Below are positions 18,340-58,199 of a stretch of DNA of 64,000 nucleotides, piece by piece. Under the pieces are notes generated by a model, which was not told the DNA's origin, ran no database searches, and saw only the letters and a list, made by a program, of their open reading frames with translations. The stretch's first letter is position 1; the number at the start of each line of letters is the position of its first letter. The translations under genes and the position numbers were made by a program. Origin of the DNA: an uncultured Gammaproteobacteria bacterium (GTDB taxonomy: Bacteria > Pseudomonadota > Gammaproteobacteria > Steroidobacterales > BM003). Where the stretch lies: contig CAWGLN010000006.1 of NCBI GenBank assembly GCA_963823435.1, positions 69-64,068 of the forward strand, in the 5' to 3' direction.

Positions 18340-18416
18340 CCGGAAGCACCCGGAAAAAGCGGCCGGATACCTTTATCCGCATCTGGCTCGTGCTCCGGAC
18401 CCAGCCTGCCCCGGCC

Positions 18417-19203: not shown

Positions 19204-19480
19204 GGTTCCTCCACTCTGCAAATCAGGTCAGCGGAACTGGCGCTCCACCGAACGTCTTTGGCGCATGTCCCGTTCACCCGTGTGGGGCGTCCCCGGTCCG
19301 GCGCAGCAGCAGCGCCGGATTTCTGCAAAGAGTATCAATGTTTCGGGACCGGTGCGCCACCTGTCTTCTTAAACAGGCCGGATACACAATCCGGTTTCTC
19401 CCACCCGGTCCCGGCATCGACAAGGCGCAGTGGATCGGCCATCATCTGCGCATAATCATGATAAGCAGACATTATCCGCC

Positions 19481-21298: not shown

Positions 21299-21374
21299 AG
21301 GCGCCGTGTATAGTCGAGTCGCATTATGAGCCTGCGCCATCATCAGTCAAAAAACAGGGACGGATAAAATAAGG

Positions 21375-23453
21375 ATGTCATTTTTCGAGGAACTCAAGCG
21401 CCGTAACGTATTTCGCGTAGGGATTGCCTACGTGGTCTCTGCCTGGGTGCTGCTGCAAGTGGTGGACCTGGTGCTGGACAATATCGCCGCGCCAGAGTGG
21501 GTCATGAAAGTCTTCATGCTGGCGGTGGGTGTGGGCCTGCCCCTGGCCTTGATACTCGCCTGGGCTTTTGAGATGACCCCCGAGGGCCTCAAGCGTGAAA
21601 CCGCCGTGAATCCTGATCAGTCCATCACTCCGCAAACCGGGCGCAAGCTGGATCGACTCATTATCGTGTCCCTCGGAGTTGCGGTAGCCTTTCTCCTGTT
21701 AGACCGGTTCATCAATGTGCCAGGCGAAGCCGAACCGACGGCGGACACCACCACAGAGTCTGTGCAGGTCGAGCAGGACGGTGGTACACCGATCCATGTT
21801 ATCTCGGACAAGTCCATCGCCGTGCTGCCACTGGCTAATCGCAGCGTGCGAGCGGAGGATGCATTTTTCGCCGAGGGCATGCACGACGAGTTGCTGACCC
21901 AGTTGAGTCGCATCTCGGCCCTACGGGTGATTTCACGCACCTCGGTGATGGGCTATGCCGGAACCACCAAGCGCATGCCGGACATCGGTCGTGAACTGGG
22001 AGTGTCCACCTTGCTCGAAGGCGGCGTGCAACGCTCCGGTAACCGGGTACGCATTAATGTCCAGCTAATCGAAGCGGCCACCGACGAACACCTGTGGGCC
22101 GAGGTCTACGACCGGGAATTGACTGCAGACAACCTGTTCGAGATTCAGTCAGACATAACCCTGGCCATCGCCTCCGCCTTGCAAGCAGTCCTGACCGGAC
22201 AAGAGCAGCAAGTGCTTGAGCAAAAGCCCACCGAGAACCTGGACGCTTACGCTCACTACCTGCGAGGCAAGGTTGCCGCATCAACCTACGGACGAACCTC
22301 CTCACAAATTGCGGCGAGCATTGCTTCCTATAGAAGTGCAATTGAACTTGATCCGAAGTTCGCCGCCGCCTACGCCGCGTTGAGTATCGACTTGATAGAG
22401 CACTTCTGGGTCAACGGACGGGTCGGCGACCTGGGTCCGGCCACCGAGGCACTGGAGAAGGCCCGTGAACTGGCGCCCGAAGCAGCCGGGACCCACATCG
22501 CGGAAGGCTATTATTACTACTGGGGGCACTTGAACTACGAGCTGGCCATCGACGCATTTGATCGTGCGCTGGAGTCCAGTCCCGGCGAATTGTTGGCGAT
22601 ACGCGGGCGCGCCTACACCTTGCGACGAATGGGTCGATTCGAGGACTGTCTCGAAGACTTCAACCGGATACTTTCGCTGGACCCACTTAATGGTCCGGCG
22701 GCGGTCGAAATGGCGTACTCCCTGACACAAATCGGTCGCTTCGATGAGGCTTTTGCGAAGATTGAACAGGCGAGAGCGCTGGGGACGAAACATGCGTTTT
22801 TTGTTTACGTTGAAGCGAACTTGATGGCGACCGAGCAGAGGCTGGATGAGGCTAGAGCGGTGCTCGGGACAGTTTCTGAATCCATGGCGCCCGTCGCTTT
22901 TGACTTGTTGTTTTCAATCGCCCGTTGGAGCCGCGATCCACAGTTTATCGAGCAAATGGATGAGCTCGGGGAACGCCGTAAACTCCTGAATCCGGACAGT
23001 GTTGAAAACTATCTGCCATCGCACGCCCGGGTACTGTGGGACAGGGGCCAATACACGGATATGCAGCCGTTGCTGGATGATTACGAGCCGAAGTTACTGA
23101 AATTGTTGGATACCAGTCCGGACCAGGCTGCACCGCTCGCCGGGCTTATCGAGCTCTACTCCATGCGGGGCGACCGGTCCCGCTTTGACGCCATGGTGCA
23201 TCGCTATGATCATGACCTGAAGCCGGACGCCTTGCGCCTGGTGGAGCAGGGCATGGTGATTCCAATTGGTTACGCCAGGTTCGGAGATGCCGATGCTGCC
23301 CTGGATCGGATTGATCTTGCGGTTGAACAGTTCGGAATCTGGGAGTTCTCCCGCTTTTCCATGGACCCGGTGTTTGACTCCATGCGGGATAATCCTCGCT
23401 TTCAAGCCCTGGACCAGCGTTTGCAGCAGTGGCTGGAGAGTCGCAAGAAATGA
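21375..23453 (+). CDS. ELKRR-anchor TolB-N-like/TPR protein, copy 3 (3 TM)
   Basis: Intact 692-aa ORF; SIAVLPLANRS...GMHDELL variant; DPVFDSMRDNPRF C-terminal motif. Confidence 0.9.
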   Translation: MSFFEELKRRNVFRVGIAYVVSAWVLLQVVDLVLDNIAAPEWVMKVFMLAVGVGLPLALILAWAFEMTPEGLKRETAVNPDQSITPQTGRKLDRLIIVSLGVAVAFLLLDRFINVPGEAEPTADTTTESVQVEQDGGTPIHVISDKSIAVLPLANRSVRAEDAFFAEGMHDELLTQLSRISALRVISRTSVMGYAGTTKRMPDIGRELGVSTLLEGGVQRSGNRVRINVQLIEAATDEHLWAEVYDRELTADNLFEIQSDITLAIASALQAVLTGQEQQVLEQKPTENLDAYAHYLRGKVAASTYGRTSSQIAASIASYRSAIELDPKFAAAYAALSIDLIEHFWVNGRVGDLGPATEALEKARELAPEAAGTHIAEGYYYYWGHLNYELAIDAFDRALESSPGELLAIRGRAYTLRRMGRFEDCLEDFNRILSLDPLNGPAAVEMAYSLTQIGRFDEAFAKIEQARALGTKHAFFVYVEANLMATEQRLDEARAVLGTVSESMAPVAFDLLFSIARWSRDPQFIEQMDELGERRKLLNPDSVENYLPSHARVLWDRGQYTDMQPLLDDYEPKLLKLLDTSPDQAAPLAGLIELYSMRGDRSRFDAMVHRYDHDLKPDALRLVEQGMVIPIGYARFGDADAALDRIDLAVEQFGIWEFSRFSMDPVFDSMRDNPRFQALDQRLQQWLESRKK

Positions 23454-25312
23454 GTTTTTTCGAGGAACTCGAAACGCCGCAATGTATTCCGCGTGGGTAT
23501 CGCCTACGCGGTGGTCGCCTGGGTGTTGCTGCAGGTGGTGGACCTGGTGCTGGATAATATCGTGGCGCCAGAGTGGATCATGAAGGTATTCATGCTGGCG
23601 GTGGCGGTGGGTTTCCCCCTGGCGGTGATCATAGCCTGGGCTTTCGAAATGACCCCCGAAGGACTCAAGCGCGAGTCTGAGGTGGATCGCAGCCAGTCCA
23701 TCACCCCGCAGACCGGGCACAAGCTGGATCGCATCATTATCGTCGTTCCTGGCGGTTGCGGTGGTCGTGCTTCTGGCCGAGACGATTGTATGTCGGCGAT
23801 GAAAGTTTGCCGCCAGTATCGACAGCGGCGAATTCTGAAAGGTCACCGGCCGATGCCACCGCACAGCCCGTGGGCCCGGTATCCCGCGCCCGGGGCAACT
23901 CCATCGCCGTGCTGCCGTTCGTCAACATGAGCGCCGACAAGGATAACGAGTATTTCTCGGATGGCATCTCGGAGGAAATCCTCAATGTGCTGGCGCGTAT
24001 ACCGGACCTGAAGGTGGCGGCCCGCACCTCGGCCTTTGCGTTCAAGGGCACGAACACCAACATTGCCGATATTGCCCGGACCCTGAATGTGGATATCGTG
24101 CTGGAAGGCAGTGTGCGCAAGTCCGGCAACCAGGTGCGGGTCACGGCCCAGTTGATCAAGGCCGCCGACGGTTATCACCTGTGGTCGGAAACCTACGACC
24201 GGGAGCTGACCAATATCTTCGCCATCCAGGACGAGATTGCGAAGTCCATCGCCGATGAGTTGAAGCTTACCCTGGATATCGATACGGCGGTTGCCGGCAA
24301 CATGACCGGCACCACCAGCACCGAGGCCTACGATGCCTACCTGCGGGGTATGAACCAGTGGCATCTGCGAAGTGGAGAATCCCTGCACAACAGTGTCGAG
24401 CTGTTTGGCCAGGCCATTGCCATCGACCCGAATTTTGCCCGGGCCTATGGAGGTCTTGCACTGACTTACGCCATCATCATGGATTACACGGATATGCCGG
24501 CTGCCGAGGCACGGCAGAAAGCGCGCATCGCGGCGGATGCTGCGCTGGGCATCGATCCGCACCTGGTCGAGGCGGCCACCGCCCTGATCTACACGACCAA
24601 CGATATCGACCAGCAACTGGTCTATGCCCAAAGAGCCATCGAGTTGGGGCCATCATTTGCCACCGCGCACCAGTGGTACGCAACGACTCTCTCCCTGACC
24701 GGCGATCTTGAGGCCGCCGAACGAGAGTACCTGGCGGCCTATGAACTGGATCCGCGGTCACGCATCGTGGGCGTCAACCTGGCGGGAAATTACCGGCTGA
24801 TGGGACGTTTTGAGGACGCCGAGCGGAACTTGCAGCAGGTCCTGTCCTTTGCACCGGACTTTTATTTTGCCCATGACTCCTTGTTCCAGCTGCGACTGCA
24901 GACCGGGGATATGCAAGGCGCAGAGTCCGCGGGCAGGCAGCTGGCCCGGGAACTGGGGCGAGATGAGGCTGCTGTGCAGGTCTACCTGGATTTGTTTTCC
25001 GACAGTACGAAGAAACAGGATGCACTGGAGACCATCATGAGTTGGCCCAGGCGCGACCGGTGGAGCGGAGCGAGTCCCGCCCTGATCGGCGAAGGTCTTT
25101 CGACGCTGCTGGCGATTGCAGGCGCGTGGCCGGAAGCCCGGACCGTACTGAAGGAAGAGATTCAATACACTCCCGTTTACATTTACGGGGGCGTGAGAGT
25201 TGATCGCAGCCTTGCCGCCTTCAATTGCAGCCCCGAGACCCAGGCTATCTACGCCACTACAAATTTGCCGCCGCTTGCCGTGCCCTATCCTTGTGAAGGC
25301 TTGACGAAATGA
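23450..25312 (+). CDS. ELKRR-anchor TolB-N-like/TPR protein, copy 4 (3 TM; frameshifted)
   Basis: ATGA overlap with copy 3; joins ORFs 23493..23930 and 23756..25312. Confidence 0.85.
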
Positions 25313-27196
25313 GTTTCTTCACTGAACTCAAGCGACGCAATGTTTTCCGCGTCGGCGCCGCCTACCTGGTCGCCGCATGGCTGGTGATTCAACTCGTCGA
25401 GACGATTTTCCCGGCCTTTGGCTTCGGCGATTCGGCCGTGCGTCTTGCGGTCATCGTGCTCGCCATCGGTTTCGTACCGGTGCTGATCCTGGCCTGGGCC
25501 TTCGAGATCACCCCCGAGGGTGTGAAGCGGGACAGGGAAGTGGATCGCAGGGAGGCCGGCGCATCGATAACTGCCCACAAGCTAAATCGTGCCGTGGTGG
25601 TATTGCTGGTCGCCGCGGTGGGCTACTTCGCGGTGGACAAGTTTGTGCTGGCCCCGCCGCAGCCGGGCGAGCAATCAACGGCTGCACAGCGGGACGCGAC
25701 GTCACAGCCACCAGGCGTCGAAATCTCTGCCCCCGCAGTGCAAGGTCGCTCGGTGGCGGTGCTGCCCTTCGTCTCCATGAGTAGCGGTGAGGATGACGAG
25801 TATTTTGCCGACGGCTTGACCGAGGAAATCCTCAACTACCTGGCCAGTGTTCCCGAATTACTGGTTACCGCACGCACTTCGGCGTTTCATTTCAGGGGCA
25901 CCAATCTGCCGGTGCCCGAGATTGCCGCCACCCTGGGTGTGGCCAACGTGGTGGAAGGCTCGGTCCGACGGGCCGGTGACAGGGTTCGTATCACCGTCCA
26001 GTTGATCCGGGCCGCCGACGGCTTCCACCTGTGGTCCCAGACCTATGACCGCACCCTGGAAAATGTGTTTGCGGTGCAGGAAGATATCGCTCGCAACATT
26101 ACCGAGGTGCTGGACGTGGTGCTGGACGAGCAGGAGCTGGCTCGCATGCGTGCCGCCGGCATTGGCGACGTGGAAGCCTTCATTGCTTATCAGAAAGGGC
26201 AGGAGGCCTTCACCGCGGCTCACTCGGACATCGAGCACATCTCCGATGCGCTGGCGACGGCCAACCAGTATTACGACCAGGTACTGGAAGTGGCGCCAGG
26301 GCTCACCGGCGTGCATTTGCGGCGGGCTGACCTTGGTGGTCATGTGTTATTCGAATTGGTGGCCGGGTTTCGCCCTGAAACCTACCCCGGGAGAGTCCCG
26401 GGATGTGCTGAAGACCTTGCAGGAGGATTACTCCCGGGCCTGGGAGTCCGCACGCCCCGGGGCCGAGCGGACCATGGTGGAAGTCGAGCGCACGATTTTC
26501 TCCGATAACTGGGAGGGCCTGGCCGCCAGGTTGGACCAGGTGTTCGCCCTGCTGAGTGCCTGCAAGGCAACTGGATAAGCCAGTTGGGTCAGCAGTTTGG
26601 CCGGGCCGCAGAATCGGCCGCCTGGCAGCAGAACAACTTGCGCTGCGACCCCCTCGCCGGGATGACCTACATGGCCCTGACCCAGGCGCTGGTCTGGGAC
26701 GCAAGGCCCGAGGAGGGTCTGGAGTTGATTGCCCGGGGAGAAGCGCTGAAAATCTACATTCCCTTCAAGCGCGATATGCGACAGGTCGCCCTGTTGGCGG
26801 CAGGCCAGTTCAAGCAGGACGCCGAGGCGTATATGCCCGCCGCCCACGGCACTATCTACCCCTTTCCCGACCGGCTCATGCTGGAGGCCAGGGTAGGAGA
26901 TCAGGTTCGTGCCCGGGAAATCTCCGATGCCTATCTGGCTCGTCCCGGCGTCGATGACTGGTCGTCCATGGTCGCAGCCGCGGTGGTGGGAAACCGCCAG
27001 GGGGCCAATGCCGCCGCAGCGCGTATTGACGGTCGTCCCGGCGGGCCATTCATGCTTGCTCGTCGGCTCGCAGATGTGCTTTTGCGGCGCACCCTTCGAC
27101 CTGGATGCAACGCCCAATTTCAAGGCGCGGTTAGGGGAGTCGGGTTTCCCCTGGCCACCGCGGGATCCGGTCGGTTACCCGCTCAAGACCTGGTAA
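25309..27196 (+). CDS. ELKRR-anchor TolB-N-like protein, copy 5 (3 TM; divergent helical C-terminus; frameshifted)
   Basis: ATGA overlap with copy 4; [17 protein letters not shown]; ends [15 protein letters not shown]...YPLKTW. Confidence 0.8.
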
Positions 27197-37926: not shown

Positions 37927-39752
37927 TCGCAGGCAAAATCGTCCTTGCCCACCGCGCGGCACTGGGGCGGATAGCCGGTTTCACGCCAGTAGTCCTGAAT
38001 ACCCACAGTCTTTATGAACTGCTTGAAATACGTTGATTGGCGATATCTTGCTGCCGCCGGGTACCACATCAAAAAGCGTATGTCGTTGTTGTGATCCGCC
38101 GTCGCGAGGAGGTCGTATTGTCGAAATGCAAGCAAGGCAAATGGCACCGATTCCAGGGCAGTACCGGTGTCTTCTGACCAGCGCTCGAGTCGGCGCATCC
38201 CCTCACTATGATCGGCTTCGGGATTTTGTAGCGCCTTGATCACATCGCCAACCGGGGCGTAGCTCATCCAGGATCTTACGTCCGCAATCAACAGCGCCGT
38301 GGCGACCTGTCCGCGGGCCAGGTATTCCGAGATAAAGACTTCATCCATGGAATGAAAGCTGCTGCCCAGGGTCTTCTCATACAGTTCAACCGCCCTGTCA
38401 TTTTCGCCCAGTAGCAGGTAGGTCGCCGCCAGGTGCTGCTCACAGTTCAGGTAACCGGGATCTACGCGCAGGCACTGCAACAGGTCAGCTAAAGCCCTGG
38501 TCGGAAAGCCGACCTGATTATGCAACAAGCCTCGCCACAACCACGCGGTGGCGTTTTTGGGGTCCTTCGCTATCGCCGAATCGTAGTGCTGGAAACTCAC
38601 GGCGAGGGAATCCCCGGCGTAACCAAGATTGCCCAATACCGCGTAGGGCATGGACAGGTCCGGGTCGATTTCCAGGGCGCGTTGCGCTGCCACCCGTGCC
38701 TGTGGCTTGTGATCAACATCACTGGGTATCCAGTTGTCGATGACAGTCAGCGTCGAGGCCAGACCCGCCCAGGCCCGGGCGAAACCCGGATCCAGCTCGG
38801 TAGCCCGGGTGAACAGCTCAATGCTGGTGTTCAGGCTTTGTCTTGCCTGGAACAGGGCCTGGGCCTTTAAAAACAGGTCATAGGCGTCGAGGTTGTCAGT
38901 AGCGGCAACTACGGTGACAGCTTTTTCCGCCGGATTGATACCCAGCTTGTCCTTGAGCGAATCCACGATGGCGTTGGCAATCTCATCCTGAATCTTGAAG
39001 ATATCCACCAGGTCCCGGTCATAGGTTTGCGACCACAGGTGCCGGTCCGTGACGCCATCGATGAGCTGCGCCGTGATACGTATGCGATCCCCATCCTTGC
39101 GCACACTGCCCTCCAGTACCGTGGCCACGCCAAGTTCGCGGGCAATCTCGGGAATATTCTGGTCCTTGCCGCGATAGGTAAAAGCCGACGTGCGCGAGGC
39201 CACCCGCAGACCATCCACGCGCACCAGCACATTCAGCAATTCCTCCGCGATACCGTCGGTGAAATAGCGCTGGTCCTGGGCTGCACTCAAGTCATCGAAC
39301 GGCAGCACGGCGATGGAGGCCAGCGCGTCATCCGCTTTCGTCATTGCGGCAGCTACCGGGTTTTCTGGAATTGCCTGGTCCGAAGCAAGTGGCGCTGACT
39401 TGTTGTTCTCGGGGATGAGCCGGTCGGCCACCAGGCCGGCGATGGCGATGACCAGCAGCACGGTGATCAGGGTGTTGATCTTGCGGGCGCTCTCGCCGGT
39501 GATGGAGCGGGAGCGATCCACGTCCTTTTCCAGCTTCAAGCCCTCGGGGGTCATTTCGAACACCCACGCGAACAGCAGGGCAGGGACGAAGCCCAGCACC
39601 AGCAGCATCACGACCAGGGAGCCGGCCCAGCCCGGCACAGGCAGCAGTGAGGAAAGCACGTCGGTGAGCTGCAGCAATACCCAGGCGGAGACCAGGTAAA
39701 GTACCGCGACCCGGATAACATTGCGGCGCTTGAGTTCGGCGATGAAAGTCAT
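37923..39752 (-). CDS. ELKRR-anchor TolB-N-like/TPR protein, copy 6 (3 TM), close paralog of copy 2
   Basis: MTFIAELKRRNVIRV; shares DPKNATAWLWRG, YLNCEQHLA and GYPPQCRAVGKDDFACD-type motifs with copy 2. Confidence 0.9.
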   Translation of the reverse strand: MTFIAELKRRNVIRVAVLYLVSAWVLLQLTDVLSSLLPVPGWAGSLVVMLLVLGFVPALLFAWVFEMTPEGLKLEKDVDRSRSITGESARKINTLITVLLVIAIAGLVADRLIPENNKSAPLASDQAIPENPVAAAMTKADDALASIAVLPFDDLSAAQDQRYFTDGIAEELLNVLVRVDGLRVASRTSAFTYRGKDQNIPEIARELGVATVLEGSVRKDGDRIRITAQLIDGVTDRHLWSQTYDRDLVDIFKIQDEIANAIVDSLKDKLGINPAEKAVTVVAATDNLDAYDLFLKAQALFQARQSLNTSIELFTRATELDPGFARAWAGLASTLTVIDNWIPSDVDHKPQARVAAQRALEIDPDLSMPYAVLGNLGYAGDSLAVSFQHYDSAIAKDPKNATAWLWRGLLHNQVGFPTRALADLLQCLRVDPGYLNCEQHLAATYLLLGENDRAVELYEKTLGSSFHSMDEVFISEYLARGQVATALLIADVRSWMSYAPVGDVIKALQNPEADHSEGMRRLERWSEDTGTALESVPFALLAFRQYDLLATADHNNDIRFLMWYPAAARYRQSTYFKQFIKTVGIQDYWRETGYPPQCRAVGKDDFACD

Positions 39753-45604: not shown

Positions 45605-47194
45605 ATGAGTGAAAAACAGTCTGGTATCGGCGGGTATTTCGAAGAACTCAAGCGCCGCAAGGTGATCCGTGTCGCTATCGCCTACGTGGTTGGCGCATGG
45701 GTATTGATGCAGGTTGCCGATGCCACCTTCGAGCCCCTGAACCTGCCGCAATGGTCGACCACCCTGGTATTGTGGCTGCTGGCGCTGGGTTTCCCTGTGG
45801 CGCTGATCCTCGCCTGGGCACTGGAAGTCACGCCTGAAGGTATTCGCCGCACCAGGAAACAACGCCGCAAGCCCGCCAGCGCAACCAAGCAAGCGACCAG
45901 TACCCAGACCGAGCACTCCATCGCGGTGCTGCCATTCAGCGATATGAGTCCGGAGAAAGACCAGGATCATTTCTGCGAGGGCATGGCGGAGGAGATCATC
46001 AACTCGCTGGCTTGTATCCCGGGTGTGCAAGTCGCCTCGCGCACCTCCTCGTTTCAGTTCAAGGGCACCAGCATGGCCATCGACGTGATCGGCGAACGCC
46101 TGAACGTAGATACCGTGCTTGAGGGTAGCGTGAGGAAGGATGGCAACGATTTGCGTGTGACCGCACAGCTGATCAATGTCGCTGATGGGTTCCACATCTG
46201 GTCGAAGAGCTTTGAACGTGAATTAAAAGGCGTATTCGGGATCCAGAAAGAGATCGCGGAGAGCGTGGCCAGGGCATTCAAGCTGTCCATCAGCCCCAGC
46301 ACGGAAAAGGCCATTGAGCACCAGCCCACGCAGAATATGGAGGCGTATGAGGCCTACCTGCGTGGCCGCCGGCACTTCTACCAGTTCAACGATGCGGAAT
46401 GGAAAAAGGCGAGTGTGGAGTTTTCCCGCGCCGTTGATCTTGATCCGGATTACGCCCTGGCCTACGCCGGTCTGGCGGATTGTTATTCACTGATCTACAT
46501 GTATACCGACAGTTCCGTGTCGAATCGTCAGCAGGCGGAGACCAACAGTCGCCTGGCCCTGCAACTTGCACCGGATGTTGCCCAGGTACACGCATCACGT
46601 GGCCTGGCCTTGTCGCACAGCAAGCGTGAGGGTGGTGCCGAGGGCGCCTTTGAGCGGGCCATCGAACTGGATCCCATGTTGTATGACGCGTACTACTATT
46701 ACGGTAGGTATGCCCTGGCAAAAGGCAAATTCGAACAGGCGGTCGAGTTATTCGAAAAAGCCTCGAAGCTGCGTCCCGATGACTACCAGGCGGTGAACCT
46801 GCTGACCCAGGTATACCGGACGCTGGGGCGGGAGGAAGAGCGTGCCGAGGCGACCAGGCGCACCCTCGATCTCATCAAGAAACGCCTGCAAACCACACCG
46901 GATGATATTCGGGCCCTGTGTCTGGGCGCGGGCCGCGCAATTGAGGCTGGTCAGCCTGGGTTAGGACTGGAATGGCTTGAGCGGGCCAGGGCCGGTTCCC
47001 CCGATGACCCGGTGACCTATTACAATATCGCCTGCGCCTACGCCGGTCTGGGAGAAATCGACAAGGCGCTTGAGTGCCTTGAAAAATCCATGTACGGGAT
47101 TTCAGATGCCTCCCTGGAATGGATGGAGAACGACAGCGATCTCGATCCTCTGCGTGAGCACCCGCGTTATAGAGCCCTGGTGGAAAAGCGATAG
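45605..47194 (+). CDS. ELKRR-anchor TolB-N-like/TPR protein, copy 7 (2 TM only)
   Basis: After WALEVTPEG comes basic RRTRKQRRK and then SIAVLPF with no third TM; DSDLDPLREHPRY C-terminus. Confidence 0.9.
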   Translation: MSEKQSGIGGYFEELKRRKVIRVAIAYVVGAWVLMQVADATFEPLNLPQWSTTLVLWLLALGFPVALILAWALEVTPEGIRRTRKQRRKPASATKQATSTQTEHSIAVLPFSDMSPEKDQDHFCEGMAEEIINSLACIPGVQVASRTSSFQFKGTSMAIDVIGERLNVDTVLEGSVRKDGNDLRVTAQLINVADGFHIWSKSFERELKGVFGIQKEIAESVARAFKLSISPSTEKAIEHQPTQNMEAYEAYLRGRRHFYQFNDAEWKKASVEFSRAVDLDPDYALAYAGLADCYSLIYMYTDSSVSNRQQAETNSRLALQLAPDVAQVHASRGLALSHSKREGGAEGAFERAIELDPMLYDAYYYYGRYALAKGKFEQAVELFEKASKLRPDDYQAVNLLTQVYRTLGREEERAEATRRTLDLIKKRLQTTPDDIRALCLGAGRAIEAGQPGLGLEWLERARAGSPDDPVTYYNIACAYAGLGEIDKALECLEKSMYGISDASLEWMENDSDLDPLREHPRYRALVEKR

Positions 47195-47324
47195 AATTAG
47201 GGGGACAGCAACCTTAGAATTAGGGGGACAGCAACCTTATCTCCCACAAAGTAAGACCGTAAATGCAGGCAACGGTTGCCTTCGGCGCCGATCACCCAAG
47301 AGTTAAGGTTACTGTCCCCGAATT
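47192..47324. repeat. REP-like element: 2 x 23-bp tandem repeat plus an inverted copy
   Basis: tagaattagggggacagcaacct twice (47192-47237); internal palindrome aggcaacggttgcct; inverted copy taaggttactgtccccgaatt (47304-47324). Confidence 0.85.
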
Positions 47325-47339
47325 TTTAAAGAGAAAAGC

Positions 47340-48926
47340 ATGAGTGACAAACAGTCTGGCATCGGCGGCTATTTCGAGGAACTCAAGCGCCGCAAGGTGA
47401 TCCGGGTCGCTATCGCCTACGTGGTTGGCGCCTGGGTGCTTATGCAAGTTGCCGATGCCACCTTCGAGCCGCTGAACCTGCCGTCCTGGTCAACCTCGCT
47501 GGTGCTGTGGTTGCTGGCCCTCGGGTTTCCGGTGGCCCTGATCCTTGCCTGGGCGCTGGAAGTGACTCCTGAAGGCATTCGTCGCACAAAGAAGCAGCGC
47601 CGCAAACCGGCCAGCGCGGCCAAGCAATCGGTTGCTGTCCAGACAGAACACTCCATCGCGGTGCTGCCCTTCGCCGACATGAGTCCGGAGAAAGACCAGG
47701 ATCATTTCTGTGAAGGCATGGCGGAGGAAATCATCAATTCCCTGTCCAGGATCCAGGGCGTGCAGGTCGCCTCGCGTACCGCCTCGTTCCAGTTCAAGGG
47801 CACCACCATGGATATCGACTCCATTGGTGAACGCCTGAACGTAAACACCGTGCTTGAGGGCAGCGTGAGAAAGGCCGGGAATCACCTGCGTGTGACCGCC
47901 CAGTTGATCAATGTGGGTGACGGTTACCACATCTGGTCGGAAGGTTTTGATCGTGAACTCAAGGATATTTTCGGGATTCAGAAAGAGATCGCCGAGAACG
48001 TGGCCAGGGCTTTCAAGCTGACCCTGAGCCCGAGCACGGAGAAGGCTATCGAGCATCAGCCGACCCAGAATATGGAGGCCTACGAATATTACCTGCGTGG
48101 ACGTCGCCACTTCTATCAGCTGTGCGACTCGGGCTGGAAAAAGGCACGTGAAGAATTTTCACGCGCCATCGACCTGGATCCGGAGTACGCGCTTGCCTAT
48201 GCCGGGCTGGCCGACTGCTTCTCGTTTATTTATATGTACGCCGACAGTGCGGTCTCTGTGCGTCTGCAAGCCGAGACCAACAGCCGACTGGCGTTGCAAC
48301 TTGCACCGGATGTCGCCCAGGTGCACGCGTCCCGCGGATTGGCCTTGTCGCATAGCAAACGCCAGGAGGGTGCGGAGAAGGCATTCGAACGCGCCATCGA
48401 ACTGGATCCGAAACTCTATGACGCGTATTACTTCTATGGCCGTCATGCTTTTTCGAAGGGGAAATTTGAAAAAGCGGCCGAGTTGTTCGAGAAAGCGGCG
48501 GTAGTACGTCCTGATGATTACCAGGCGCTGGCGCTGCTGGCCCAGGTATACCGGGCGCTGGGTCAGGAGGAAGAAGGCAAGGATGCCCGCAGACGGACCC
48601 TGGAAGCTATTGAGAAGCGCCTGCAGACCTCGCCGGATGACGCCCGGGCGCTGTGTTTTGGTTCGGTAAATTTGATGGCTGCAGGCCAAAAGGAAAAGGG
48701 TATCGAGTGGCTGGAGCGAGCCAGGTCCAGCCAGCCGGATGATGCGCTGAATCTGTATAACGTGGCCTGCGTGTACGCCACTATCGGCGAGGTCGATGAG
48801 GCGCTCGACTGTCTGGAGAAATCCATCCGCAAGGGTATGGCGGAACTTGACTGGATGAAGAACGACAGCGACCTGGATAACCTGCGCGAGCATCCGCGCT
48901 TCAAGGCTTTACTCGAGAAACAGTAA
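47340..48926 (+). CDS. ELKRR-anchor TolB-N-like/TPR protein, copy 8 (2 TM only), tandem duplicate of copy 7
   Basis: Colinear with copy 7 with long identical peptide blocks; ends DSDLDNLREHPRF. Confidence 0.9.
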   Translation: MSDKQSGIGGYFEELKRRKVIRVAIAYVVGAWVLMQVADATFEPLNLPSWSTSLVLWLLALGFPVALILAWALEVTPEGIRRTKKQRRKPASAAKQSVAVQTEHSIAVLPFADMSPEKDQDHFCEGMAEEIINSLSRIQGVQVASRTASFQFKGTTMDIDSIGERLNVNTVLEGSVRKAGNHLRVTAQLINVGDGYHIWSEGFDRELKDIFGIQKEIAENVARAFKLTLSPSTEKAIEHQPTQNMEAYEYYLRGRRHFYQLCDSGWKKAREEFSRAIDLDPEYALAYAGLADCFSFIYMYADSAVSVRLQAETNSRLALQLAPDVAQVHASRGLALSHSKRQEGAEKAFERAIELDPKLYDAYYFYGRHAFSKGKFEKAAELFEKAAVVRPDDYQALALLAQVYRALGQEEEGKDARRRTLEAIEKRLQTSPDDARALCFGSVNLMAAGQKEKGIEWLERARSSQPDDALNLYNVACVYATIGEVDEALDCLEKSIRKGMAELDWMKNDSDLDNLREHPRFKALLEKQ

Positions 48927-49136
48927 TTCCCGCCGGATCAAGTTGCTCCGCTCCCTGATGTCAAATTGAGGAAACAGCGGCTCGTCCGCCCACACGAGCC
49001 CGTTTGCGCGCCAAGCCTGCCAGCCTAATAATAACTTCTTGTTTCTGGACACTATTTATTTCGGCTGGCAGGGAACGCCGGGGACTATAATTTCAGCTAG
49101 ATGTTTTCGGTCTTCAGGGATGGGGGGTGAAAATAC

Positions 49137-50465
49137 ATGAAACGCGTTTTCGACTGGCTGCCTTTCACTTTCCAGCCACACGTCCTGGTGCTTTGTCTTG
49201 TCTTCCCGGTACTGGCCGCTTGTGGCGGAGGCGGGGGTGGCGACGACGGCATCCCCCAGACGATGACCCTCACTGCCTACGCCGTCACGCCCAGTGAGGT
49301 GCGCATCGAGTGGACCTCTCACCCCGGCGTGATCATTGGCTATGACCTGTATCGCGATGGCGCATCAGCTTACCCCTACCACCTCGACGGCACCGGTATC
49401 ACCGACTGGGAACTCACGCCAGCCACCCGCTATTGCTACCTGGTGTATGCCGTGTCCTTTCTGGGCGTAGAGGGTCAAAGCAACCAGGCTTGTGTCACCA
49501 CGCCTTCACTCGCTGGCTGGAATATCGAGACTGTGGGCGCCGGCGACAGTCCCGGCCTGGCCCTGGATGCAGCCAATCAGCGTCATGTCAGTTATCGCAG
49601 TACCGGCGGAATCATGCTGGCGGTCAAGACCGGCGCCTGGCAGTACTCTGTGGTGGATGCGAATGCCGGCGGGTTCGGCGACACCGATGTGCAGGTAGAC
49701 CGCAACAGCGCCAATCACCTGAGCTACTGGGACTACACCAACGCACGCCTTATGGCTGCGACCGACGCTACCGGCGTCTGGATTTCCGAGCTTGTCGACA
49801 ACGGGGGCAACGTCAATGCCCTGGCCCTGGACGGGGCCGGCAACGCCCATCTGCTTTACAACATTCACGAGGACGGCACGATCAATTACGCGACCAATGC
49901 GTCCGGCGCCTGGGTGAGCCAGTGGTTGGCGGGCTTCTCCAGTGGCACCATTTACGACACGGACATCCTGGTGGACAACGGTGGGGTTGTGCACGCGCTA
50001 TTTGCAATTGGAAGCCCGCAGGCCTGTTATGTTTACTACCTGACAAATCCCGGTGGTGTGTGGTCGGATCAGGTCATTGCCAGCGATACTAACTGTGGAG
50101 CAGCCCTGGCGCGGGCCTCAACGGGCGCCCTGCACATGGTGTATTCAACGCCATTCGGCCTGTCGCATGCCTTTTACGGCGGTGGTATTTGGCAGAGCGA
50201 GCAACTGGACAGTTTCAGCTGGATAGGAGGCGACCGTGTGGCCCTGGCAATCGATGACGCCGATCACCTGCATATTGCCTATCGCGATCAGAACTTCGAT
50301 TTGAAATATGCCACCAACTCCACGGGCAGTTGGGAACTTGCCTACGTGGACGGCGATGGGCGAGTGGGTCTCGATCCCTCCATCCTGGTGGATCCCTTAG
50401 GCCGGGTCAGCATCGCCTATACAGACGAGACGCGGGGAACGGTGAAGTTGGCGACCAGCCCCTGA
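49137..50465 (+). CDS. Lipoprotein with FN3 domain and beta-propeller-like repeats
   Basis: VLAAC-GGGGGG lipobox; LTPATRYCY FN3 motif; repeated LALDxxxxxHxSY...YATN..GxW units. Confidence 0.75.
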   Translation: MKRVFDWLPFTFQPHVLVLCLVFPVLAACGGGGGGDDGIPQTMTLTAYAVTPSEVRIEWTSHPGVIIGYDLYRDGASAYPYHLDGTGITDWELTPATRYCYLVYAVSFLGVEGQSNQACVTTPSLAGWNIETVGAGDSPGLALDAANQRHVSYRSTGGIMLAVKTGAWQYSVVDANAGGFGDTDVQVDRNSANHLSYWDYTNARLMAATDATGVWISELVDNGGNVNALALDGAGNAHLLYNIHEDGTINYATNASGAWVSQWLAGFSSGTIYDTDILVDNGGVVHALFAIGSPQACYVYYLTNPGGVWSDQVIASDTNCGAALARASTGALHMVYSTPFGLSHAFYGGGIWQSEQLDSFSWIGGDRVALAIDDADHLHIAYRDQNFDLKYATNSTGSWELAYVDGDGRVGLDPSILVDPLGRVSIAYTDETRGTVKLATSP

Positions 50466-50510
50466 GGGTAGCGGTCTAAAAGGGTGACAGGTGCCTGGTT
50501 TGTCGGGAGC

Positions 50511-52180
50511 TCAGATGAATCCGACCTCTGTCATCAACTTGGTGAATCGCGGATCGTCACGTAATGGGTCCATCAGGGGGTCGACCAAAATCTGACTCAC
50601 GCCCGGATCACCGATATCCCGCGCCCGGTAGCAGGGCGTCAAATGCCTGGTCGATGTTACCCCACTGGGCATGGACCTGGGCCTGCTGATACAGGCCGTT
50701 GTCGCGATAGCCGGCCAGCAGCATACGCCATGGCGGCATCGGCTTCCTCGATGTTGCCCAGCTTGTGCTCAAGGATTGCCAGGCCTGAAAATCGCATCCA
50801 GTCCAGCGGTTCCTTGGCCACCTCAAGGGCGGCGGCTTGTGCATCTCCCAGCATATACTGGCTCATGGCGATACCGTATCGCGGCCTGGGATAATGGGGG
50901 TCCAGCTCGAGTGTGTGGCGACATGCCCGGATGGCCTCCTCGTAGCGACGGGAAAAATACAGGGCGTGCCCCAGCGACTGGTTGGCAAAGGTCGAGATGG
51001 GATCCAGTTCCTGTGCTTTTCTCGCAGCGGCCAGGGCGGCCTCAATGTCACCGGTATTCATACAAATATGTGAGTATTCAATCTGCACGCCCACATTACC
51101 CGGGTCCAGCGCCATGGCGGTTCCAATAGCCTTGCGCGACGCGGCCAGATCCAGCTTGTAGGCGAAGGTGATGTTGGCGAGGACCTGGTAACCGTCCGCC
51201 AGGTCGGGCGCGAGCGCTATGGCCTTCCTGGCAGCGTCTTCGGCCTGGCTGACCACCTGGTCCAGGTCCGCAAAATTATTCCTGGCCAATTGATCCAGCG
51301 AGTCCGCCAGGCCGGCATAGGCATTGGCGTAGTCCGGATCCAGTTCGATGGCACGCCGGTAGGCCGCCACCGCACTGTTGACCGCCGCTTCATCCGAACC
51401 CCGGTTGTGGTAATGCAGCCCCTTCAGGTAGGCCTTGTAGGCTTCCGAGTTGGTGGTGCCGCCGCTGTTGATCTTCGCGGTTTCCTCGCCGAGCAGTTTG
51501 CCCTTGAGCGCCTTGACCACGGCGCTGGCGATCTCGTCCTGCACGGCGAAGATGTCGGTCAGCTCGCGATCAAAGGTCTCTGACCACAGGTGGTAACCGT
51601 CACCGGCATTGATCAGCTGCGCAGTGATTCTCACCTTGGCGCCGGATTGGCGCACACTGCCTTCCAGCACCGTCGCCACGCCCAGGCGTTTTGCCACCTC
51701 GGCGATGTCGCCGGTATGTCCCTTGAAATGAAACGAGGAGGTCCTGGCAGCGACTTTCAATTCGCTGACCTTGGCCAGCATATTTAGTAACTCCTCGGAC
51801 AAGCCATCGGAGAAGTACTCGTTTTCTTTATTACCGCTCATGTTCACGAATGGCAGCACCGCGACAGACGCGCTTGCCGGCGCGTGTCTATCAGCCGGCT
51901 TGGGCTCCTCGGAAGCGACGGGCGTAGCGGCAGCCGAGGGCGTTTCTCTCGCCTCGGTGCGCTTAAGCCCGTCCGGGGTCAGGTCAAAGGCCCAGGCGAA
52001 TACCAGTACCAGGGGAAAGCCGATACCGACCAGCAACATAATGACGCTGAATACCCAGTCCGGCGCATTGATGTTGCCCAGGATGACATCGGATACCTGC
52101 AAGACAATCCACGCCACAACGACATAGGCGATGCTGGCCTTGAATACGTGACGGCGCTTGAGTTCGGCGAAAAAAGACAT
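50511..52180 (-). CDS. ELKRR-anchor TolB-N-like/TPR protein, copy 9 (2 TM only; frameshifts near the C-terminus)
   Basis: MSFFAELKRRHVFK; polar linker with no TM3 before [11 protein letters not shown]; ends DPLMDPLRDDPRF..VGFI. Confidence 0.88.
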
Positions 52181-54282: not shown

Positions 54283-57200
54283 ATGGCCAGGTTAGCCAGG
54301 TTGGTATTGCTACTGCTTGTATTGTTGTCGGGTTGCGACGGGTATGACCCGGACAAGACCGCTGCCTATCTTGCCGACCTCGGCATCACGGGCTACCAAC
54401 TCGAACCGTCTTTCTCTTCCTCGACCTTCGATTATGTGGCGACCATACCTCCTGGCACCGATTCCATCACCGTGGAAGTCGACCAGCACCCACCAGGGCG
54501 CCACGGTAACGGTCAACGGCGTACTGGTGGAATCCGACGGCGGCAGTATCACCCTGCAGCTTGCCGCGGTGACGAACACGATCAAGGTCGTGGTGCTCTC
54601 GCCCGATAAAATGAGAACCAGGACGTATACGGTGTCGTGAGCAAGCAGTTGTTGAGCTATGCGGTTGGCGGCACGGTGAGCGGTCTGACCGGGACCGTGA
54701 CCCTGCAAAACAATTCGGGCGACGACCTGGCGATCGACGCAAACGGCGTGTTTGAGTTCACCGCCCCGGTCACCGATGGCGATGATTATGCCGTGACCGT
54801 CAGCACCCAGCCTGATGGACAACTGTGCAGCGTTACAAACGGTGCCGGCACGATAGACAGTGCCGATGTGACCGACGTTGCGGTGGACTGTGTCGACCTG
54901 TTTTCGGGTCTGTTCATCGATGATCTGGTCGAGGGTCTTGCCTACTCCTGCTCCTCGGGTATCTGGAATGAAACCACCGCGGCTGGAGAATTTTCCTGTC
55001 CCCAGGGAGATCAGATCACTTTCTGGCTGGGTACGATTGAACTCGGACCGGTATCAACGTCTTCGATCATTTCACCCTACACCCTGTTTCCCGAAGACTC
55101 CCTGGCAGCATCAACCTGGCGCGCCTCTTGCAATCCCTCGACTCGGATCACTCGCCGGATAATAATCTTGCACGTCTATTGCAGTCACTGGACTCGGACT
55201 TGCTCCCGGACAACGGTTTTATCGTAATCGATGACGCCCTCGTCGCCCTGCTGCCACAGACGCTGGATTTTTCTCTCGATGACCCGGAATTTGAAGCGGC
55301 AATGACCTCGTATGGCATTACCCTGGTGTCCGCAGAGGTGGCCGAGGAGAACCTGAGACAGGCCATTGCCGAATACGTTCCGGCCAATAGCGCACCTGTG
55401 GCACAGGCCGGACCCGACCAAGCCGTGGGCGTCGGATCAACCGTTACCCTGAACGGCCTGGCCAGCAGCGACCCGGATGGGGATGCCTTGCTTTATCGCT
55501 GGAATTTTGTGTCCAGACCCGCAGGCAGCAGTGCGCAACTCGTTGCACCGCTTACATACGGTCCGTCGTTTGTTGCGGATGTCGCGGGCAGTTATGTCGT
55601 TCGCTTGCTGGTGTTTGACGGGACCGTGACGGGTATGGACAGCGTAACGGTTACCGCGAATACCGGCGTTGTGGTCCCCGCCGCGCCACAGGGTTTGCAG
55701 GCGGTTCCCGGCGACTCGTCGGTGGCGCTCTCCTGGGACGCAGTAAGTGGCGCGACGGGTTACGTGATCTATTGGAACACTACCGGGAATGTCACCACCT
55801 CAGGCAACTGGATAGGACCGATCGCGAGCACCCAGGCTAACCTGGGCAGCCTGACCAACGGCACGACCTACTACTACCGGGTCGCCGCGAGGAATGCATC
55901 CGGCGAGGGTCCGTTGTCCAACGAGGCCTCTGCGACCCCGACACGGCCGACCTACACTGTCGGAGGCACGGTAAGCGGCCTTACCGGTACGGTGACCTTG
56001 CAAAACAATGGCGGCGACAGTCTCGTGATCAATGCGCCCGGAGGAGCTTTCGCGTTTTCGAACAGCATCCCGGATGGTGGCGGCTACAGCGTGACGGTCA
56101 GTTCCCAACCTGTCGGCCAGACCTGTAGCGTGACCGACCCGGCCAGCGGCACGGTGGCGGCGCCGACGTGACTGACCTCGAGGTGGTCTGCGTTACCCAC
56201 ACCAACACCGTGGGTGGCACGGTCAGCGGCCTCACCGGCACGGTGATCCTGCAGAACAATGGCGCGGACAGTCTCGAGATTTCCGCTAACGGGGAATTCA
56301 CATTCGCCACGGCGGTGGCTTACGGTGGTGATTACCTGGTGACGGTCAGCGCCCATCCCCTGGGCCAGATTTGCAGCGTGGCCAATGGCAGCGGCGTCAT
56401 GGCCGGCGCCGATGTGACCAACGTCAGCGTGAACTGCTTTGACAGCGGCACGCCGACGACCTCCGACTGGAAATGGGCCAACCCCCTTCCCCAGGGGAAT
56501 GATCTTACGGACGTCGCCTGGGGTAACGGCCAGTATGTTGCGGTGGGCCTGTATGGCACGGTCCTGACCAGTGACGACGGACTGACCTGGAGCGTTGGCG
56601 ATATTGGTACCGATGCGTGGCTTTACGGGATTGTCTGGGACGGAAACCGGTTTGTTGCGGTTGGAGAGGACGCGACCGGGGCAGGCAACAGCAACCTTGC
56701 GATCAGTGGGGACGGCGTGAACTGGACATTGCAGGAAGTGGGTGCCCGATATGCCTTTTCAGACATTGCCTGGAGTGGCTCCCGGTATGTTGCGGTAGGT
56801 TATCAGAATCCAGATCCCCAGTTGGGTGGCTCCATCGTTGCCGTCAGTGCCACCAGCACGGATGGCGTGACATGGACGACCCAGACTCATGCAGGATTTT
56901 CATGGGATGACGTCGCGTGGAACGGCAGCGTGTTTGCGGTGATGGAACGTTCGGGTCTGATTCACACAAGCGATGACGGTCGTGAATTGGGTGACGACGG
57001 ATATGGGTCTCACCGGCGCCAGTCTTGGCGACATCGGATCGGATGGTGCTCAATTCGTTGTCGTTGGCGGCGCAGACGGTGTGTACACGAGCCCCGATGG
57101 CCTGGCCTGGACACTTCAGCCAGGCACCAGCCTGGTCAGGGGTCCCAACATCACCTGGGATGGCAATCAGTTTGTGGTGGGAGGCTCTGGGGCTGTCTAT

Positions 57201-58199
57201 ACCAGCCAGGATGGAGTGACCTGGACAGGACAGAACCCGCTTCCGGTCCCCGGGGGTGCCTGGGTTGGTAGCTTGAGCGCGGTTGGCGGCCAGTATATTG
57301 CGTTGGGTAGTAATGGCCTGATTTTCCACACTGCGGACCTCGCGACCTGGACCTTGCTGACCTCCGGTGATTTCACCGGCTTGCAGGATGTTACCTGGGG
57401 CGACAACCTGTTTGTGGCAGTGGGGAACAACAAGACGGTTCGCACCAGCCCGGATGGGATCTCCTGGACAACCCGTGCGAGTAATAATCCGGACTGGGCG
57501 TTATTCGGCGTTGCCTGGGGCGCTGGTCGGTACGTAGCCGTGGGCGCTGGAGACAGCAACCAGGCATTGATCAGTACCGATGGTGTGACCTGGACGCCCC
57601 AAACGGTTGCCAGTGAGTTCCTGGTCCTGGAGAGCGTCGCATGGGGTGGCGGCCAGTTCGTCGCCGCGGGTGAAAACGGCGCGGTTTTCAGCAGCCCTGA
57701 CGGCATCACCTGGACCGCCCAGAGCAACGGTATAGTGGCTACTGACATTTTCTACGATATCAGCTCGAACGGTAGCCTGTTCGTGGCGGTGGGTTATTCA
57801 GACGCTGACCCCTATTACTCGGCGAACTTTATCACCAGCCAGGACGGGATAACCTGGACACCCCAGTTGCTGCCCTATGATCAGGGGGCCCAGAGCGTTG
57901 CCTGGGGTAACGGTCGGTTTGTGGCCGTCGGACACCAGGCCATCCTCACCAGCCTCGATGGACTGACCTGGACTGTGCAGCGCAATAGCATGGATCGGCT
58001 GACGCAAGTGACCTGGACCGGAACCCAATTCGTGGCAACCGGTGACATTGGCGGCGCCACTGTCCTCACCAGTCAAGACGGGGAGACCTGGACCAGCGAG
58101 CGGTCAGTCAGCGGTTTTTACCAGGGTGTCGCCTCGGACGGTAACCGGACGGTCTTTGTGACTGCCTGGGGAGGTATTGTCACCAACGATACGCTTTGA
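54283..58199 (+). CDS. Large surface lipoprotein: cadherin-like domain, three GGTVSGL Ig-like repeats, PKD-like, FN3 and Asp-box propeller (frameshifted)
   Basis: LSGC lipobox; GGTVSGLTGTVxLQNN three times; PVAQAGPDQ; LTNGTTYYYRV; many TSxDGxTW repeats. Confidence 0.8.

Follow-up and report, generated by a model that had tools for sequence, protein, structure and literature searches.

The window, a stretch of 64,000 nucleotides from an uncultured gammaproteobacterium, contains nine paralogous genes. Their products start with a strongly conserved hairpin of two hydrophobic helices (H1 and H2) and continue with a TolB-N-like alpha/beta domain and TPRs, here together called the module. Copies with a third hydrophobic helix (H3) between hairpin and module are referred to as 3-TM forms, those without it as 2-TM forms.

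Copy 1, about 16570-18259, plus strand: 3-TM form split over several frames by frameshifts; hairpin spread over two ORFs (16570-16692 and 16649-17197, plus strand); H3 seen, listed with a hydrophobicity of 2.14.
Copy 2, 19481-21298, plus strand: intact 3-TM form; hairpin H1-H2 about 19481-19705, H3 at about 19733-19816 and the module beginning near 19889.
Copy 3, 21375-23453, plus strand: intact 3-TM form; H3 about 21657-21713.
Copy 4, about 23493-25312, plus strand: hairpin, frameshift within H3, module in another frame.
Copy 5, 25309 to about 27100 (end approximate), plus strand: 3-TM form with its TPR part frameshifted near 26500.
Copy 6, 39752-37923, minus strand: intact 3-TM form; H3 about 39414-39470.
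Copy 7, 45605-47194, plus strand: intact 2-TM form sharing 79% identity with copy 8; the hairpin lies at about 45638-45841, then come a basic linker (about 45842-45913) and, starting near 45914, the module.
Copy 8, 47340-48926, plus strand: intact 2-TM form with the hairpin at about 47373-47576, a basic linker at 47577-47648, the TolB-N-like domain at 47649-48011 and TPRs at 48030-48917.
Copy 9, 52180-50514, minus strand: 2-TM form belonging to a second orthogroup, with the hairpin at 51965-52180, an acidic linker at 51869-51964 and the module below it; towards the 3' end two frameshifts, between about 50730 and 50640, the open frame ending at 50657.

Mean Kyte-Doolittle hydrophobicity over 19 residues (KD19) amounts to 1.6-2.1 for H1, 2.4-2.8 for H2 and 2.1-2.4 for H3. 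H1 is thus marginally hydrophobic, with a conserved Q and D/E within it. H3 consists of 15-17 apolar residues with charged flanks on either side; in copy 3 it is an RKLDR...LLLDRF helix with KD19 of 2.37 for LIIVSLGVAVAFLLLDRFI. The division into 3-TM copies 1-6 and 2-TM copies 7-9, proposed in the first-pass annotation, holds: H3 is present in five of the six, and in copy 4 the frameshift inside it leaves its start alone readable (HKLDRIIIVV). Beyond H2, copies 7-9 have no segment with KD19 above 1.2. Their TPEG or TPDG motif is followed by a polar linker of 24-32 residues, RRTRKQRRKPAS... in copies 7 and 8 and KRTEARETPSAAA... in copy 9, which leads directly into SIAVLPF or SVAVLPF exactly as had been quoted.

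The hairpin signature, ELKRRxV...Y...AW...Q / ...G...AW.E.TPEG, is almost invariant. Eighteen of its columns are unchanged among seven window copies, and 15 across 22 sequences of 30-55% overall identity. AlphaFold models the hairpin with moderate confidence (pLDDT about 59-77); the copy 2 model has helices at residues 12-36, 42-66 and 85-112 and strands from 137, and the copy 8 model has a pLDDT of 82.7. The hairpin is without a model in Pfam and NCBIfam: residues 1-80 gave no match at E <= 0.01 with one NCBIfam exception that we regard as noise: in copy 6, residues 15-108 match exosortase O (TIGR04489) with an E of 0.007 but score 15 bits where the cut-off is 250. With a 75-residue profile of the hairpin, window copies score E 1e-33 to 1e-37 and the 3.3-Mb genome yields 26 loci, a repetition that by sequence is far beyond chance. 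Eighteen of these loci have a scorable H3, four are broken right after the hairpin and four lack H3, namely copies 7, 8 and 9 and a locus on another contig (C1:1556676-1558478). The whole family comprises 19,932 representatives, and it reaches as many as 50 hairpin matches, a figure that does not stand for gene copies, in a single 2.8-Mb genome of a sediment gammaproteobacterium.

The module resembles periplasmic sensor domains. Among 969 chains, the copy 2 model is closest to the periplasmic domain of CadC (3ly8; Z 19.6, rmsd 5.3, 301 of 323 residues aligned), and it also matches FlgT (3w1e, Z 15.2) and the TolB N-domain (4pwz; Z 14.2, rmsd 2.9 over 126 residues, model residues 134-271). The copy 8 model reaches a target-normalised TM-score of 0.66 with the periplasmic domain of CadC in 3ly7. 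The predicted module accordingly combines the alpha/beta sandwich and TPR-like helical domain of the CadC fold, and its alpha/beta part, following the SIAVLPF strand, has the N-terminal fold of TolB, the type named 'TolB-like 6-stranded beta-sheet domain' in COG5616. Pfam TPR models (TPR_1/2/8/11/17) score above cut-off, at 40-66 bits, in six of six copies scanned. FlgO (PF17680) stays below its gathering cut-off of 22.6 in copy 8 (18.3 bits) and copy 9 (16.7 bits), and the FlgO domain is nevertheless related to the module because two relatives, P0145 and P0122, pass with 34.3 and 26.4 bits.

On which side of the membrane the module resides can be judged from several features. Charges and cysteines were counted in 111 2-TM and 50 3-TM homologs, the 111 belonging to one copy 7/8-type orthogroup and therefore not being independent. 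Mean K+R is 4.1-6.1 in the N-terminal flank, 0.07-0.48 in the H1-H2 loop, 5.9-6.1 after H2 and 1.6 after H3 (where D+E is 3.8). This pattern fits an N-terminus inside, H1-H2 loop outside, post-H2 segment inside and post-H3 segment outside, and it agrees with the earlier assignment of the N-terminus and the loop after H2 to the cytoplasm by the positive-inside rule. Cysteine density differs about four-fold: 3-TM modules contain 0.28 Cys per 100 aa, with an even count in 44 of 50, and copy 7/8-type modules 1.17, with an even count in 40 of 111. The 3-TM copies of this genome carry their cysteines in close pairs (286/296, 457/467, 466/475 and others). The parity signal is weaker in a second sample of plain 3-TM ectodomains, where counts are even in 28 of 39 and, among those with any Cys, 12 are even and 11 odd. 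Copy 9-type proteins have no conserved Cys pair, and their post-H2 linker is acidic (over its first 15 residues, K+R is about 2 and the net charge -1.2). The case for a cytoplasmic copy 9 module is consequently weaker; since the linker is acidic, this assignment draws on the shared hairpin and the absence of paired cysteines.

Domain fusions provide further reporters. Cytoplasmic domains stand N-terminal to the hairpin, reporting that the N-terminus is inside: a STAND/AAA ATPase in P0267/P0512, and a winged-helix DNA-binding domain in, for example, a protein on contig C13 of the same genome (Trans_reg_C at 61.6 bits, hairpin, H3, module). All 40 winged-helix fusion clusters examined have H3 (38 are 3-TM, two are borderline in scoring, none is 2-TM), and such headed hairpin proteins occur in 14 of 33 hairpin-bearing relatives. 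Hairpin and H3 also precede PD40 propeller and FGE-sulfatase domains in precomputed Pfam annotation; both domains are usually extracytoplasmic. In P0122/P0511 (1283/1284 aa, from two sources) a 2-TM unit is joined to a 3-TM unit, giving five helices, and the cytoplasmic start of the second hairpin requires the first, 2-TM module to be cytoplasmic as well. Finally, the nearest non-hairpin relatives found for the copy 8 module are soluble proteins in which a Ser/Thr kinase is fused to a module with 46% and 43% identity to that of copy 8; they have no hydrophobic segment, KD19 peaking at about 1.0. Charges, cysteines, N-terminal heads, the five-helix fusion and the soluble kinase relatives all agree with the proposed periplasmic 3-TM and cytoplasmic 2-TM modules. 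Dual-topology proteins of the EmrE/SMR type insert one protein in both orientations and have a weak charge bias; here the K+R bias is strong and fixed, the hairpin has the same orientation in both classes, and helix number alone differs.

We suggest that the nine genes are paralogs within an uncharacterised and very large inner-membrane protein family, whose hairpin would have both its ends in the cytoplasm. The majority of members continue with a short, conserved basic loop and with H3, which together would bring the module to the periplasmic side. Without H3, the two separate conserved lineages of copies 7/8 and of copy 9 would keep their modules in the cytoplasm, tethered to the membrane. 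Most likely, then, the extra helix places a sensor-like domain outside in six copies and three copies hold it inside. Because a minority of members have a winged-helix DNA-binding head before the hairpin, the family may be placed among one-component receptors of the ToxR/CadC type. This reading as a whole, hairpin-anchored CadC-fold sensors distributed to both membrane sides as a branch of that type, appears to us reasonably probable. Each form may recognise a ligand or client in its own compartment, and the conserved hairpin might, beyond anchoring, pass this on to other members of the family or to a partner in the membrane. Obligate 2-TM/3-TM pairs need not be assumed.

The same compartment might in principle house both classes, if H1 or H3 did not span the membrane (H3 being, for example, a juxtamembrane amphipathic helix) and the module remained unmoved. 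The marginal H1 with its polar residues, the shortness of H3 between charged flanks and the poor parity replicate would all suit such an arrangement. We consider it unlikely, given the charge flip over H3 (K+R 6.1 before, 1.6 after), the cysteine density gap, the absence of H3-less winged-helix fusions and the domains found behind H3. It is hardly credible that 2-TM copies are decayed or mis-assembled 3-TM genes with H3 deleted. Although the genome is rich in frameshifts, with copies 1, 4, 5 and 9 affected in the window, copies 7 and 8 are intact, and H3 is missing from 120 of 120 copy 7/8-type homologs and from all 118 classified copy 9-type homologs (120 listed). Both orthogroups recur at full length in many independent assemblies, with identities of 57-94% and 63-98% across the part of the query that was used, and are conserved orthogroups and not deletion artefacts. 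The 2-TM state appears in at least three places of the tree, and its starred branches force at least two changes.

The first-pass annotation had gone further and suggested that outward 3-TM sensors and inward 2-TM adaptors might be joined by their common hairpin in a single device for transmembrane signalling. The hairpin is indeed conserved far above the needs of an anchor, both classes occur together in 19 of 41 related genomes, no searched genome has 2-TM forms alone, and the P0122/P0511 fusion is a hint of the Rosetta-stone type. However, with copy 8 as query at E <= 1e-60, 2-TM forms were found in 19 of the 33 hairpin-bearing genomes and not in the other 14, one of them with 37 hairpin matches. 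Co-occurrence follows family size and kinship. Most copy 8 orthologs are solitary (a second hairpin gene lies within 5 kb at two of 11 loci with flanks), no conserved partner gene was seen adjoining family genes, and the fusion, a lone cluster of two members, resembles read-through of two tandem genes. Pairing of this kind seems to us quite improbable. Doubtful to a slightly greater degree is a combinatorial ToxR-like transcription switch, in which the hairpin would serve for both assembly and output: 3-TM and 2-TM receptors without a head, dozens of them, would dock through it on the one to four winged-helix-headed paralogs per genome to read signals from both sides, and P0122/P0511 would be a frozen example.

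Several known systems come close to the family. CadC of Escherichia coli, a ToxR-like one-component receptor, is given a two-domain description in a preprint (bioRxiv 10.1101/2022.04.08.487670). The window copies share with CadC (PDB 3LY7/3LY8/3LY9) the two-part fold and a weak match to positions 219-487 of its equivalog model NF007540, and some family members share its Trans_reg_C head. They differ in having a conserved hairpin with optional H3, that is two or three hydrophobic helices, where CadC and ToxR-like receptors have a single transmembrane helix. The nine copies also lack a DNA-binding domain (Trans_reg_C gave no match in a Pfam scan of the six intact ones), identity to CadC is 12-13%, and NF007540 gives 29-34 bits in this comparison, 16-34 bits over window copies, against a cut-off of 400. 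In the model for the virulence regulators HilA/EilA (NF009037), positions 110-408 match copies 7/8 with 54-60 bits. Since HilA is soluble and acts in the cytoplasm, a module of this type is already known on the cytoplasmic side. Unlike the window copies, HilA carries a DNA-binding head but lacks a membrane anchor, and window scores (38-60 bits) are far under the cut-off of 589. The Ser/Thr kinase or adenylate cyclase fusions (for example TIGR04510 mod_pep_cyc and loci L043 and L044) have a module that matches copy 8 with 43-46% identity across about 440 residues, and L043 has the FC[DE]G cysteine of copies 7/8; these fusions have a catalytic output and no hairpin, whereas the window copies have the hairpin and no catalytic domain. 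LapB/YciM, which is membrane-anchored with cytoplasmic TPRs, and proteins with periplasmic alpha/beta domains of the TolB/FlgO/FlgT type likewise hold a TPR or TolB-N-like unit at the inner membrane, but the window copies are without PD40 propeller and rubredoxin domain.

No enzymatic or DNA-binding output domain is found in the window copies. The phrase 'without kinase or cyclase' is accurate for them. But some family members have a ToxR/CadC-type DNA-binding head, and the supposed undescribed system is on that account a variant of a known receptor type. On its own, the family brings no new principle of signalling to light. If our reading is true, about 20,000 representative clusters form a branch of ToxR/CadC receptors that replaced the single helix by a conserved hairpin and mostly lost the DNA-binding head, which raises the question of how head-less receptors signal. 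Natural conserved pairs of one sensor fold on opposing membrane sides would also offer a test set for topology predictors and for adaptation of the CadC-type fold to oxidising and reducing compartments.

In databases, homologs are called 'TPR protein', 'TolB-like protein', 'adenylate cyclase' or 'serine/threonine-protein kinase', and the Atlas clusters nearest to the hairpin proteins 'hypothetical protein'. The two enzyme names reach hairpin proteins because the module is common to such enzyme fusions, and 'adenylate cyclase' is wrong as a name for the hairpin family.

The finding described here is a real, well-conserved architectural switch within a branch of ToxR/CadC-like membrane receptors that is large and unnamed. 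The window (contig C6, 69-64068) belongs to a genome of 3.32 Mb in 13 contigs (G000), whose nearest named relatives are uncultured Woeseiaceae, "Chromatiales" and "Xanthomonadales" MAGs originating from mud and sand. ORF listing and translation reveal nine paralogs in the window. Their first 72 or so residues are shared: a basic stretch (ELKRRxVxRV) leads into a hydrophobic helix H1, and a brief acidic loop closing in P.W connects this to a strongly hydrophobic helix H2 and the motif AW.E.TPEG. Further downstream, all nine continue with a SIAVLPF strand, an alpha/beta domain and TPRs, together called the module.

The nine paralogs of the window (3-TM, with a third hydrophobic helix; 2-TM, without it)
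about 16570-18259, plus strand: copy 1, 3-TM, with frameshifts
19481-21298, plus strand: copy 2, 3-TM
21375-23453, plus strand: copy 3, 3-TM
about 23493-25312, plus strand: copy 4, 3-TM group, frameshift inside H3
25309 to about 27100, plus strand: copy 5, 3-TM, with a frameshift
39752-37923, minus strand: copy 6, 3-TM
45605-47194, plus strand: copy 7, 2-TM
47340-48926, plus strand: copy 8, 2-TM
52180-50514, minus strand: copy 9, 2-TM, with frameshifts

Past TPEG, copies 1-6 continue with a basic loop of conserved sequence, K[RK]E.DVDRS.S.T...[RK]K[LI][DN], followed by the third helix, H3; in copies 7-9 a polar linker of 24-32 residues replaces both. Kyte-Doolittle means over 19 residues are 1.6-2.1 for H1, 2.4-2.8 for H2 and 2.1-2.4 for H3, and no segment of copies 7-9 downstream of H2 exceeds 1.2 on this scale. 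The division made in the first-pass annotation, a third helix in copies 1-6 and none in copies 7-9, is thus borne out by ORFs, translation and hydropathy, with the qualification that copies 1, 4, 5 and 9 carry frameshifts and that of copy 4 lies within H3 itself.

Models made by AlphaFold2 for copy 8 (39-row alignment, pLDDT 82.7) and copy 2 (22 rows, pLDDT 77.7) both consist of a helical hairpin, the alpha/beta domain and TPRs. H3 forms helix 85-112 in copy 2; residues 75-102 of copy 8 are a disordered linker. Among 969 re-aligned PDB chains, the copy 2 model best matches the periplasmic domain of CadC (3ly8, Z 19.6, rmsd 5.3, 301/323 residues), and its alpha/beta part also matches the TolB N-domain (4pwz, Z 14.2, rmsd 2.9) and FlgT. 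For copy 8, 3ly7 has the top target-normalised TM-score (0.66) among the Foldseek hits listed. A bioRxiv preprint (10.1101/2022.04.08.487670) describes the CadC sensor as an alpha/beta sandwich plus a TPR-like domain.

The earlier proposal that the module is periplasmic in 3-TM and cytoplasmic in 2-TM proteins is supported by six lines of sequence evidence: charge, cysteines, heads, cargo, a fusion and soluble relatives, less so for copy 9. In 111 2-TM and 50 3-TM near-full-length homologs, the mean number of K+R is 4.1-6.1 upstream of H1, 0.07-0.48 within the loop joining H1 and H2, and 5.9-6.1 past H2; past H3 it falls to 1.6, alongside 3.8 acidic residues. Modules of 3-TM proteins contain 0.28 Cys per 100 residues, in even number in 44/50; those of G000 lie in close pairs, such as module positions 286/296 and 457/467 for copies 2 and 6, and one pair closes the C-terminal beta-hairpin of these two copies. 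Modules of the copy 7/8 type contain 1.17 Cys per 100 residues, and the count is even in 40/111. A second cysteine sample is less clear: counts are even in 33/40 winged-helix 3-TM ectodomains and in 28/39 plain ones, among which those with any Cys divide into 12 even and 11 odd.

The heads are represented by a 793-residue paralog on another contig, C13, which combines a winged helix, the hairpin, H3 and the module:

C13:109137-111518 (L001:1137-3518), minus strand: winged-helix paralog with OmpR-type head (Trans_reg_C, 61.6 bits)

It resembles regulators of the CadC/ToxR type, but has three membrane helices instead of one. Among 120 relatives found with its first 290 residues, 81 have the hairpin, 40 of them behind a winged helix; 38 of these 40 score as 3-TM, two are borderline (Kyte-Doolittle 1.75-1.85) and none is without H3. 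In P0267/P0512 a STAND/AAA ATPase precedes the hairpin; the longest such member stops a few residues past TPEG, though its contig measures 48.6 kb. According to precomputed Pfam annotation, hairpin and H3 also stand upstream of PD40 beta-propeller, FGE-sulfatase and protease-like domains (P0462, P0482, P0476, P0502, P0457, P0481, P0495), so they form a portable anchor not bound to the TolB-like/TPR module. In a natural fusion found in two sources (P0122/P0511, 1283/1284 residues), a 2-TM unit is followed by a 3-TM unit on a single polypeptide. Because this chain has five helices, its second hairpin can have its basic start in the cytoplasm only when the first module lies there too; the junction itself looks like read-through of tandem genes. 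Finally, the nearest non-hairpin relatives found for the copy 8 module are Ser/Thr kinase fusions (46% and 43% identical), which contain no hydrophobic segment whatsoever; 3-TM paralogs of the same genome are 36-42% identical.

Speaking against opposite sides, H1 is marginal and contains Q and D/E, and the hairpin reaches a pLDDT of only 59-77. In the copy 9 type, moreover, the linker is acidic and has about 2 K+R in its first 15 residues. Judged from sequence, we consider the compartment switch quite likely for copies 7 and 8 and somewhat less so for copy 9. Most likely, H3 decides which side of the inner membrane this CadC-type sensor fold occupies.

The 2-TM forms are real genes. Not one of the 120 top relatives retrieved from the database with residues 1-200 of copy 8 (57-94% identical, mostly 520-535 residues) has H3, and an RRTKKRRKP-like linker is present in most. 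For copy 9, the 120 top relatives show 63-98% identity and mostly measure 550-570 residues; H3 is absent in all 118 classifiable ones, and they have no conserved Cys pair. An initial tally of 36 "2-TM" proteins among the top 150 representatives, obtained with a first Kyte-Doolittle threshold, consisted mostly of frameshifted fragments or borderline H3 and was dropped. We built a quick, unrooted tree of 83 rows from the hairpin plus 150 module residues, using 14 hand-picked copy 8-type homologs and full-length representatives from the hairpin-profile search. The 2-TM state shows up three times in it: in a clade of 17 (SH-aLRT 99) uniting copies 7 and 8, a paralog on contig C1 and the 14 picked homologs; in copy 9, which sits among 3-TM forms; and in the first unit of P0122. 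The starred branches require at least two changes between states, each either a gain or a loss of H3 in this unrooted tree. The kinase-fused relatives point to domain shuffling as the origin of copies 7 and 8, in place of a plain loss of H3 in an adjacent 3-TM gene.

The first-pass annotation further suggested that the two classes could pair as a signalling system if the hairpin mediates oligomerisation, and named as a check whether genomes with 3-TM forms consistently carry 2-TM or enzyme-fused ones. We detected 2-TM forms with copy 8 as query (E <= 1e-60, match unbroken from hairpin into module); an unbroken match marks the 2-TM form because 3-TM paralogs align only from residue 85-104 onward. 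Among 20 of the listed matches, 18 lacked H3, one was ambiguous and one had it (genome G040, left out of the tally). Co-occurrence holds in 19 of 33 hairpin-bearing genomes (18/32 without the unpublished G022). It fails at this threshold in the other 14, one with 37 hairpin matches and 13 with 1-11, one of these only 76% complete. No searched genome has 2-TM forms alone. These counts weigh little either way, as the genomes are kin, the count rises with the size of the family, and remote 2-TM forms escape the query. Another hairpin gene accompanies copy 8 orthologs at 2 of 11 loci with flanks. An operon partner for copies 7-9 was considered and rejected, because their neighbours (an RNase T-like exonuclease, an fn3 lipoprotein and a phospholipase D, suggesting no pathway) are kept at none of these 11 loci; synteny is shared only by the closest relative, L035. 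Complex prediction with residues 1-118 of copy 2 and residues 1-100 of copy 8, run without controls, returned no verdict (score 0.00) and counts neither for nor against contact between the hairpins. Winged-helix plus hairpin genes occur in 14/33 genomes (1-4 each), G000 having one intact (on C13) and one frameshifted (C10:1654-2440). We regard obligate pairing of the two classes as a minority possibility; hairpin-mediated assembly is our preferred guess for the signalling route of members without a DNA-binding head.

A profile built from seven readable window hairpins (alignment A1) finds 26 loci in G000: 18 with scorable H3, four without (copies 7-9 and C1:1556676-1558478) and four broken directly behind the hairpin. 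Against 1.84 billion cluster representatives it matches 19,932 proteins at E <= 0.001, of which 12,627 remain at E <= 1e-10. Matches occur in 33 of 41 genomes, namely G000 and others from its genus, family and order (32/40 without G022), with up to 50 per genome. Pfam recognizes only TPRs and a sub-threshold FlgO match; in NCBIfam, the models for HilA/EilA (positions 110-408), CadC (219-487) and the cyclase family TIGR04510 match weakly and below threshold, and the hairpin has no credible match in either database. Clusters retrieved from the Atlas with copy 3 residues 1-118 are all unnamed "hypothetical protein", and a PDB sequence search with copy 8 returned TPR proteins only, with no match to the alpha/beta domain or hairpin. 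A search of the openly accessible literature found no paper on the hairpin or on TolB-like/TPR expansion in Woeseiaceae.

The presence of this module type on both membrane sides is already known, in separate proteins: it is periplasmic in CadC, and cytoplasmic in the soluble HilA and in kinase or cyclase fusions. Relocation of sensor domains via gain or loss of a helix is likewise a familiar theme in chemoreceptors and kinases. The new elements here are a hairpin anchor that is conserved, a head-less expansion on this scale and a switch that recurs inside one family.

Several further features of the window deserve mention. Residues 466-527 of copy 8 (48735-48920), the C-terminal TPR end-cap, match NF047558 "TPR_END_plus" (84 bits) and chains named "PDZ domain-containing protein" (PDB 9is4, 9iox, 9imn, 9iiu). 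ORFs at 55128-58199, partly overlapping in different frames, contain PKD/fn3 domains and a repeated DG(I/L)TW typical of beta-propeller-like repeats. Genes are interrupted at 16570-18259, 23493-25312, 25309-27100, 50514-50730 and also 4813-6141, where the listed translation seems partly out of frame; the frameshifts could be assembly indel errors or real gene decay. Contig C7 (17167 bases, L003) is a second copy of window 14012-22262, syntenic with it and 76-87% identical in nucleotides, its first 811 bases being 98.9% identical to window 11987-12796. It carries an intact version of copy 1, and reflects a segmental duplication or else the presence of another strain in the bin.
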